A DNA stretch of 64,000 bases. Source: Malacoraja senta. Its lineage: Eukaryota. A model generated the notes under the pieces. It was not told the DNA's origin, did not search any database, and saw nothing but the letters and a program-made list of their open reading frames with translations. How positions within the stretch are numbered: position 1 is the stretch's first letter; each line of letters opens with the position of its first letter. Positions 27,201 to 29,629 of the stretch are shown one piece after another. The translations under genes were made by a program, and so were the position numbers. Location: the NCBI GenBank assembly GCA_038087875.1, contig CM075994.1, positions 7,380,001 through 7,444,000 of the forward strand. The letters run 5' to 3'.

Positions 27201-29629
27201 GGAGTGAGGGGGAAAGGGGTAGCGGGGAGTGGTGCAAGAGAGAGGGGAAGGGGGTGGGGGGGAGACGGGGGTGAAGAGGGGTGGGGGAGGGGGAAGAGAG
27301 GGGGTGGAAGGGGAGGAGGGAGAGGGGTGAGGAGAGAGGGGGAAGAGTGTGGAGGGAGGGGGAGAGTGGAGAGAGAGGAAAGTGGGGAGGGAGAGTGGGA
27401 GGGGGAGGGGGAGAGAGGAGTGGAAGAGTGGGGAGGGATGGAGGGGAGAGGGGTAGGGCGAGTGCTGGAAGTTGGACAGGGGGGGTGGTGGAAGAGGGAC
27501 AGAGGGGTAGGGGAAGGGGTGGGAGAGGAGAGAGAGGGGAGGGTGCGGGAAGGAGGGGGAGAGAGAGGGGTGGGGGAGGGAGAGGGAGAGGTGTGGTAAG
27601 GGGGAGAGGTGGAAGAGTGGGGGAGGGAGGGGGAGGGGAGTGGTGGAAGAGGGACAGAGGGGTAGGGGGAAGGGGGCGGGGGAGAGAGGGAAGGGGGTGG
27701 AGGAGAGAGGGATGGGGTGGGAGGAGGAGGGGAAGGAGAGGGAGGGGGGTGAGGAGAGGGAGATGGAGAGGGGGAGGAGAGAGGGGTGGGAGAGGGGAGG
27801 GAGAGGGGGGAGGGAGGCGAGGAGGGAGATGGGGTAGGGGGTAGAGTGGGAAGAGTGTGGATAGAGGGGGAAGAGTGGGGAGGGGGAAGGGGGTGGGGGT
27901 GGGGGAGGGAAGGGGATGGGGGAGGGAAGGGGCGTTGGGGAGAGAGGGAAGGGGGTGGGGAGGAAAGGGGGGATGGGGAAGGGGTGGGAGGGAGAGGGAA
28001 GGGGGTGGGGGAGGGAAGGGGGTTGGGGAGAGAGGGAAGGTGGTGTGGGAGGGAAGGGGGAGAGGGAAAGGGGGTGGGGGAGAGAGGGATGGTGGTGGGA
28101 GGTGGTGAGGGAGATGGTGAGGATTGGGAGATAGAGAGGGGGAGGAGAGAGGGATGGGGGAGGGGGAGGGGGGAGAGGGATGGGGGAGGGAGAGAGAGGT
28201 GTGGGGGAAGGGGGAGGGATGGGGAAGGAGGGGAGGAGGGAGATGGGTTAGGGGAGGGGTAATAGTGTGGAGGGAGGAGGAGAGGGATGGGGGAGGAGGA
28301 GAGAGGGATGGGGGAGGGGGAGAGATGTGGGGGTGGGGAGGAGGAAGATGGGGTAGGGGGGGAGGAAGAGTGTGGAGGGTGGGGGAGAGGGGTGGTGGGA
28401 GAGAGGGGGAAGAGTGGGGAGTGAGAGTGGAAGGGGGATGGGTAGGGACAGTCCATCTGTTCCCCATTCCCTATCACCCCCAATCCTCTTTCTCTATTCC
28501 CACACACGTGACGACGCCCTTCGACACAGGCTGCGGAGGTGGGGGGAGGGGCTGGGGCTGGGGCTGCTGCAAAGGCATATGTAAATGGATCCATTCCGAT
28601 TGGACTTCTGTGAGCATTGGGCATTGTGACATCACACAACGGCCCCTTCATTAACATTCTATGGCTGAGAGCTGGTTTTTTTTACATTTTGAAATTTTGG
28701 GGGGGGGGGGGAGAAGTATTTTAATTTAAAAAGTGTACATAAACGCGACCAAATTTAATCAGGAGTGGCTATTCGTAAAGAAAAATGAAATCTCTTTAGA
28801 AATGGTCAAATATATCGGCGTTTCCGCATGCGGTGTGGGCGTAGGGCGGTATCAAAAGTGCTGGGTGACACAAGTCAGGCAGCTGGACGGATGGCAGCCA
28901 CAGAGTTTTAATATATTAGTATAGATTATAGATAGATAGATAAGATAAGGGGGGGAGGGGGATAAGATAAGATATGGGTTAGCACAGGTGACGGATGATT
29001 GGGAAAAGGCAGGAGAATGGGGTTAGGAGGGAGAGATTGAATGGCGAAGTAGACTTTGTGGTCCGAATGACCTAATTCTGCTCCTGTCAGCTATAGTCTT
29101 TATAGACATTATAGGTTTAAGGGGGGGGAGGGAAGATTAACGGGAGATTAAGAGGGGGAAGTGATTTAATGGGTGTATGGAACGAGCTGCCGGAGGAGAT
29201 AGTTGAGGCAGGGACTATCCAATGTTTAAGCAACATTTAGACGGGTACATGGATAGGACAGTTTTGGAGGGATATGGACCAAATGTAGGCAGGTGGGACT
29301 AGTGTAGATGGGACATGTTAACGGGTGTGGGAAGGTTTTCACGTTGCAAAATTCTATTACTCTATGACCTGAAATGTCGTCTGTCCATTTCCAGATGCTG
29401 CCCGTTCCTCCAGCACTTTGTGTTCTGCTCATATATCAGGTTATCTGTACAGTAGGGGTATGTGTCCATCTGTGTGTGTGTGTGTGTGTGTGTGTTGTTT
29501 TTTTATTGCTAAAGGTAGGGGTTCATCCTGACCACAGCACTAACAATGAACGTTTGCCTCAGTGTACAGTAACTTCACACAGTGACATGATCAGTACTTT
29601 GCACCATAATTAGCTGCATAATTAGGTAA

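Follow-up and report, generated by a model that had tools for sequence, protein, structure and literature searches.

A chain of Helitron-like units clipped in one register in Malacoraja senta and its possible origin by serial insertion into resident heads

The window analysed here is a stretch of 64,000 nt from Malacoraja senta (GCA_038087875.1, CM075994.1, positions 7,380,001 to 7,444,000), and all positions refer to it. This eukaryotic DNA is rich in repeats, among them LINE, LTR and Tc1-type elements, and its LINE and SINE sequences appear to resemble those of cartilaginous fish. On the minus strand, at least seven Helitron-like units lie end to end; the seventh continues past the window start, and the chain's far end thus falls outside the window. 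All 7 heads and 6 full tails of the window belong to this one chain. Profile searches over the whole window found no solo copy beyond 28925 and no head or full tail outside the chain, and an Rfam search of 1-32000 gave no match. Elsewhere, two overlapping frames at 41220-44244 (plus strand) encode stonustoxin-type domains (a weak MACPF-like match, a helical and a thioredoxin-like one), followed by a fibronectin III and a GTPase-like match; they are apparently without introns and divided between frames. A Tc1/Tc3-type transposase fragment is located at 46356-46979 (minus strand).

The units end in GACCCAACGGGTC-TGCACTTGGTCTAG at 25580, 23777, 17600, 14754, 13766 and 3966, the last of these being split by an LTR retrotransposon. 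The hairpin CAGACCC-AAC-GGGTCTG (17 nt, 7 bp) stops 12 nt before the end and was obtained in all five tails that were folded (z from -1.75 to -2.89; the sixth, LTR-split tail was left out of the folding). CTAG is present at all six unit ends, and the next base is T in five cases and C in one. A 5' TC terminus with a preceding A is found in unit 1 only (A|TCTATAC at 28926/28925); the six inner units are without it. Ends of canonical Helitrons are described in excerpts of PMC4778049 and PMC6544945, and by their ends, on which the family call rests, the units appear to be canonical Helitrons (Helitron1). No Helitron/RepHel domain was detected in the 19 ORFs scanned against Pfam, out of 64 of at least 150 aa; many of the others lie in CT-rich tracts. 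Because no such domain occurs among the scanned ORFs, the units are taken as non-autonomous.

Unit 1 (25580..28925, minus strand, as are all units) has a head of type alpha and is the only unit with a full head. Its CT-rich interior holds a degenerate internal tail (26812-26775) and a MITE-like piece with an insert of ~0.5 kb, and it closes with the hairpin and CTAG. Unit 2 (23777..25579) is also alpha, and its clipped head TAATATATTAAAACTC stands immediately behind the CTAG of unit 1. Unit 3 (17600..23776; alpha, clipped head TAATATTTTAAAACTC) is interrupted at ~23604-18813 by a decayed RT-bearing element, presumably DIRS-like, which has terminal and internal inverted repeats and contains a LINE end at ~20057-20518. 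Unit 4 (14754..17599) has a head of type beta (TATACTTTTAAAACTC) and contains a second beta-like head piece at 15374-15275 without a CTAG junction, possibly a further unit whose junction was lost. Unit 5 (13766..14753) has a head of type gamma (TGTATATTAAAACTC), as does unit 6 (3966..13765; TAACTATTAAAACTC), which carries a LINE insert at ~12704-11470 and degenerate tails at 9461-9427 and 8901-8855. The tail of unit 6 is divided between hairpin and CTAG by the LTR retrotransposon (3977..8717, plus strand; RT, RNase H, integrase order), the 199-nt LTRs of which are 99% alike and which is flanked by TGCAC on both sides. This retrotransposon sits in the 12 nt between the Helitron hairpin and CTAG, and its pol is broken across several frames. 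Unit 7 (1..3965; gamma, CAACTTTTAAAACTC) continues past the window start.

Further degenerate tail copies are found at 24564-24520 and 437-404 (minus strand). Like those of units 1 and 6, each lies behind a CT-rich tract, and they are interpreted as old 3' ends retained after the element had acquired new ones. The units also contain long imperfect purine/pyrimidine tracts of up to 1.9 kb, to which the strong strand skew across 1-28500 is due. The palindromic MITE-like repeat (24292-24500, 35228-35441, pieces at 26071-26757 and 18098-18146) is common to units 1-3 and also occurs free in the window outside them.

At all six internal junctions, a clipped head directly follows CTAG. The junctions start with TAATATATTAAAACTC (25579), TAATATTTT (23776), TATACTTTT (17599), TGTATATT (14753), TAACTATT (13765) and CAACTTTT (3965). 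TCTATAC or any other TC start is seen at none of them. A preliminary description of this DNA had stated that internal units begin just after CTAG on the minus strand, and this holds for each of the six junctions in the window; its example CTAG|TAATATATTAAAACTC is exact at 25579 but differs at the other five. It had also stated that the internal units are without TCTATAC. None of the six has it, but an exact loss can be asserted only for the two units that share the alpha head. The register is constant: at 6/6 junctions, a shared AAAACTC ends 15-16 nt after the cut. In the head type of unit 1, the cut is followed by a block, TAATATATTAAAA, that consists of A and T only (13/13).

Three types of head can be distinguished. 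In the first 200 nt, the alpha heads (units 1-3) are 86-92% alike and the gamma heads (units 5-7) 71-84%, and unit 4 represents beta; likeness between alpha, beta and gamma heads is 42-63%. The pairwise divergence of the alpha units is 5.5-7.4%.

At the front of the chain, the minus strand at 28946-28919 reads ATCTT-ATCT-ATCT-ATCTATA-ATCTATAC, and from 28918 on it reads TAATATATTAAAACTC. This ATCT run (28919..28946) consists of the candidate orphan heads TCTTA, TCTA, TCTA and TCTATAA, followed by the intact head of unit 1, TCTATAC (28925-28919). Each TC has an A directly before it. Five ATCT within 28 nt are found nowhere else among the 624 ATCT starts on both strands of the whole window; elsewhere no more than three occur per 28 nt, a number reached twice, once in a LINE copy at +37616. 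The string ATCTT-ATCT-ATCT-ATCTATA outside the 5' end, noted earlier, is therefore confirmed and unique in the window. It had been read as about five ATCT heads. Five ATCT are present, but one of them is unit 1's own, which leaves 4 orphans of 4-7 nt against at least 6 junctions, and none of the orphans equals TCTATAC. If the run mirrors the order of the units, the nearest orphan TCTATAA matches unit 2 with one change; unit 3 (alpha) predicts TCTATA(C) and the position holds TCTA, a mismatch. As to repeated 5' termini before one body, TCTATAA alone is convincing as an orphan; the other three are short and ambiguous. TCTATAA is probably a real orphan head, and the remaining TCTTA, TCTA and TCTA may be shorter orphans, slippage products or host ATCT.

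The host flank beside the run (28947..29089, minus strand) is the 3' part of a LINE, identified with LINE paralogs and a consensus of LINE contigs, and we take this LINE to be CR1/L2-like. The paralogs read ATCT(ATCT)nCTGCCTTA, i.e., (ATCT)1-3, and the flank instead has ATCTTATCTTATC, a C-tract and CCTTA. ATCTTATCTTATC at 28973-28961 aligns with the (ATCT)1-3 of the host LINE. In this alignment, the LINE's own ATCT lies 14 nt upstream of the run, and the CCTTA behind it matches as far as the run's initial A. Hence, the host does not supply all five repeats, and the idea that (ATCT)3 of the host LINE is the whole run was ruled out, as it aligns upstream of the run. TTATCTTATC forms a 10-nt direct repeat with copies at 28970 and 28948. 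Because of this repeat and the alignment of ATCTTATCTTATC with the LINE ATCT, host sequence may account for the outermost one or two heads.

Contigs of four coded runs (X20, X1, X2 and X4), from four organisms other than the window's own genome, were placed on 28700-29200. The summed contig depth does not equal copy number, and contigs that match the ATCT run were also placed preferentially. In X20, the summed depth is 52,182 at 28894, 16,955 at 28917, 1,160 at 28919 and 908 at 28926, i.e., it drops 14.6-fold at the clipping point (28917 vs 28919). The drop in X1 is only from 636 to 422 (1.5-fold), and X2 and X4 show none, being flat at 10.6 and 16.9. In the X20 contigs, CTAG presumably precedes the clipped T. 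Many variant contigs and the high summed depth over the alpha head mark a dispersed multicopy family in X20, with fewer such contigs in X1. Among the contigs that reach 28926, one A is left out at this position, giving TCTATA-TCTATAC, in 9 X20 contigs (526 of the depth of 908), 1 X1 and 1 X4 contig. Three letters are left out at 28925 (TCTA-TCTATAC) in 1 X20 and 2 X1 contigs, and the head is C-less (28919 left out) in 3 X20, 3 X1 and 1 X2 contigs. Head indels of 1-3 nt are frequent among the relatives' contigs. All four runs have depth over 28921-28954. Over 28955-28971, depth is 0 in three of the four and 7.4 in one, and none of the placed contigs bridges the flank; this low cover is not evidence of absence. 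The head and the ATCT run recur without the host flank in other species, which speaks of recurrence, not of frequency.

In a run screen with 22 rows, none covers half of the stretch; the shares are 0.08-0.13 in 19 rows, 0.25 in the best one and 0.00 in two, and only the four runs above were drawn on as evidence. Exact tail and head patterns gave 0 matches in viral contigs, prokaryote genomes and metagenomes. A 14-nt pattern at 119 metagenome loci was taken as chance; only 2 of these loci reach a 17-nt match to the array and none a longer one.

Units 1 and 2 differ by 17 substitutions in 28730-28918. Four of these fall on the 7 listed sites at which both alleles have at least 30% of the X20 depth, where 29 variant rows are listed for the head region and allele shares are biased towards the reference allele. 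The chance of this overlap is 5e-5 for site and base and 0.003 for the site only, and at 3 of the 7 polymorphic sites the two units agree. As the substitutions fall on family-wide polymorphic sites beyond chance, the simplest reading of the sequences is that units 1 and 2 come from separate donor lineages; gene conversion is possible.

Private changes in the heads are fewer in alpha (20/483 unit-columns) than in gamma (34/411; Fisher p=0.011). In 706 columns, units 1, 2 and 3 have 20, 19 and 32 private changes (chi-square p=0.11); unit 3 alone gives p=0.026, a comparison picked after the fact. The gamma units have 12, 6 and 16 in 137 columns, which is not monotonic, and their divergence may reflect subfamily difference and not age. 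An age gradient with the youngest unit nearest 28925 had been proposed as a check. The front units are less diverged overall, but units 1 and 2 are equal and the trend within alpha and gamma is as given above, so that the sequences suggest a weak gradient, with the least diverged units at the front.

We consider it reasonably probable that the chain is best explained by serial insertion of new copies into resident heads. It is favoured over a single concatemer because of the three head types, the lineage alleles in neighbours and the weak age gradient, and also because the relatives' contigs show the identical clipping point and doubled heads. The preliminary description had argued from unit divergence in the same direction, and the head types and lineage-specific alleles of neighbours bear this out. 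Its proposal that each copy inserted a few bases inside the previous 5' end is supported as to serial insertion into heads, but one head per insertion is not.

According to this model of serial insertion, a chain of non-autonomous canonical Helitrons would have been built up over an extended period, chiefly by additions at the 5' end, with newcomers mobilised in trans from dispersed donors. A newcomer would enter the outermost resident copy 4-7 nt into its head, immediately ahead of the AT-rich TAATA/TAACT block. The first bases of the resident would become an orphan joined to the newcomer's TC, and the newcomer's CTAG would abut the resident's T, so that the junctions all read CTAG|T in one register. 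A single event could also bring in doubled heads or several units as a block. A C-less head TCTATA^TAATA would offer a canonical A^T target, and insertion into it should give a TCTATA-TCTATAC front and a CTAG|TAATA back. Both products predicted for this target were observed. A transposase bound to the left end of the resident may prefer the cut site. We infer the order of the insertion events and the reason why this bond is struck; the anatomy, register, subfamily mix and allele differences of the chain were observed, as were the cut point and doubled heads in relatives. According to excerpts of PMC4778049, Helraiser prefers an AT target with an AT-rich 3' flank, and 46 of 1,751 insertions are off AT, mostly at TT, AC and AA. 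The pure A/T block behind the cut fits the known preference of Helitrons for AT sites with AT-rich 3' flanks. Against insertion into heads, the unit 1-type head makes the cut C^T, a non-canonical site. Full-headed copies inserted behind CTAG or in front of a head were rejected, as they would yield CTAG|TC, seen at 0/6 junctions.

How much of the ATCT run records such insertions is a separate matter. In a strict counter, each unit left exactly one orphan head and the run counts insertions. In its favour, the run adjoins the sole full head and every TC follows an A; a single change would make the nearest orphan fit unit 2, and TCTA plus the start of unit 4 makes a plausible head; moreover, the contigs of all four runs cover head and ATCT run and essentially not the flank beyond 28955. 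We nevertheless doubt that the run counts insertions, because only 4 orphans stand against at least 6 junctions, the orphan lengths are unequal (4-7 nt) and the orphan expected for unit 3 is mismatched, and because the region is slippage-prone, adjoins a host ATCT microsatellite and composites can carry doubled heads. The mobilisation of composites with doubled 5' termini is described in excerpts of PMC5148889. A strict counter is thus quite improbable, and the run is probably no one-for-one counter of insertions. It matches the serial insertion model only loosely, as a blurred record. That the run is mostly an ordinary (ATCT)n microsatellite is a possibility that we hold to be rather doubtful, although clearly better placed than a strict counter. 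It could stem from the host LINE, from slippage seeded by the TCTATA head, or from a pre-existing run that mimicked a head and attracted the first insertion. This explanation concerns the ATCT run only and is compatible with serial insertion. The (ATCT)1-3 of the LINE paralogs at the matching flank position, the 10-nt repeat that links the run start to the host stretch, and the 1-3 nt head indels common in relatives' contigs point towards it. However, with its ATCT 14 nt upstream and CCTTA matching to the first A of the run, the standard LINE form does not give five ATCT; the last two repeats are of the TCTATA type and not ATCT, and head and run are present in other species without this flank.

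Two further explanations concern the chain itself. If the transposase nicked at the inner T, clipped copies or circles could join behind a resident CTAG (G^T) or duplicate in place, and no orphans would arise. This would account both for the constant CTAG|T register and for the low number of orphans, and G^T insertion behind CTAG is raised as an option for adjacent maize Helitrons in excerpts of PMC2267711. We consider such headless copies unlikely, since they give no reason for the less diverged front units and leave the recurrent TCTATA-TCTATAC doubling unexplained, and copying in place predicts neighbours of one lineage, unlike units 1 and 2. An array from one rolling-circle concatemer or from local unequal crossing-over would agree with the fact that neighbours are most alike (units 1-3; units 5-7) and that the internal organisation, with the MITE-like piece, is common to units 1-3. 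Plant concatemer arrays have been described (Xiong et al. 2016, as summarised in excerpts of PMC12628747). However, a concatemer predicts precise CTAG|TC joins between near-identical units, of which there are 0/6, and with three head types in addition, the array is not one concatemer. Even the alpha units are 5.5-7.4% diverged, and neighbours differ in family-wide alleles. Furthermore, the plant arrays often combine numerous 5' ends with a single 3' end, whereas the units here all retain a 3' end of their own. We therefore give this explanation very little weight.

Insertion of Helitrons into themselves is already published for Fusarium. In Fusarium oxysporum, FoHeli elements have multiple 5' termini from self-insertion, up to five per copy (excerpts of PMC5148889 and PMC13342296), and a nick at the leftmost head can mobilise a doubled head as one element (PMC5148889, in excerpt). 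Such mobilisation uncouples head and unit numbers. As in our chain, the stacked 5' termini are put down to a Helitron inserting into the start of another, with composites that can move with doubled heads. The excerpts show FoHeli to be non-canonical and Helitron2-like, with repeated pieces of 31-85 nt at varied positions and one 3' end. In contrast, the chain described here has canonical TC/CTAG ends, remnants of 4-7 nt and one register common to all three head types, and the clipped bodies are all preserved along the chain, each with its own 3' end. Adjacent maize Helitrons resemble it in that unlike elements are joined CTAG to head by consecutive, head-to-tail insertion (PMC2267711, in excerpt). 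There, the junctions are CTAG|TC, the heads are intact and two elements are involved, whereas here at least seven units form a clipped chain. Helraiser/Helibat, a canonical Helitron1, shares the 5' TC, the hairpin, the 3' CTAG and the AT target with an AT-rich 3' side, but its circles have precise CTAG|TC joins and the excerpts of PMC4778049 report no targeting of its own head; in our window, the scanned ORFs encode no RepHel. For Drosophila, excerpts of PMC5932611, which do not mention Helitrons, describe TE tandems that arose as elements inserted again and again at favoured sites. Site preference and not concatemers is likewise the source of tandems there; those elements regenerate the target via target-site duplication, whereas here the target is the element's own head. 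Comparable junction detail is absent from the excerpts for Hydractinia (PMC11934779), Xenopus (PMC12001565) and insect Hel1 (PMC6544945). In main texts of the open-access literature, no description was found of head stacks of 4-7 nt with in-register clipped junctions; terminus tables in the Fusarium supplements could bear on novelty. The new aspect is a 6-7 nt register that stays constant along an extended canonical vertebrate array of three subfamilies. With self-insertion itself in print, the gain is one of precision and scale and no new principle.

Helitron target choice and the origin of tandem arrays are unsettled, and rolling-circle concatemers are the usual explanation. Unlike units that are all clipped at one bond point to a second route to long Helitron arrays and raise the question of whether the own 5' end is a preferred target of the transposase. 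There are signs that the clipped state is the commoner one in a relative, with ~15 clipped to 1 full head by depth in X20. It is conceivable, though on balance we doubt it somewhat more than a microsatellite origin of the run, that this vertebrate Helitron lineage targets a particular bond within its own 5' end. Most copies of a subfamily would then become clipped links of growing chains, each event leaving a tag of 4-7 nt. If so, ATCT-type microsatellites would arise de novo from these tags, which would also preserve the order in which the subfamilies were active. Whether a copy is built upon or caps the chain would depend on a single-base difference in the head, TCTATAC vs TCTATA. If the own 5' end is indeed preferred, chains of this kind would amount to a safe-haven strategy, might give rise to ATCT microsatellites and would document the order of the subfamilies.
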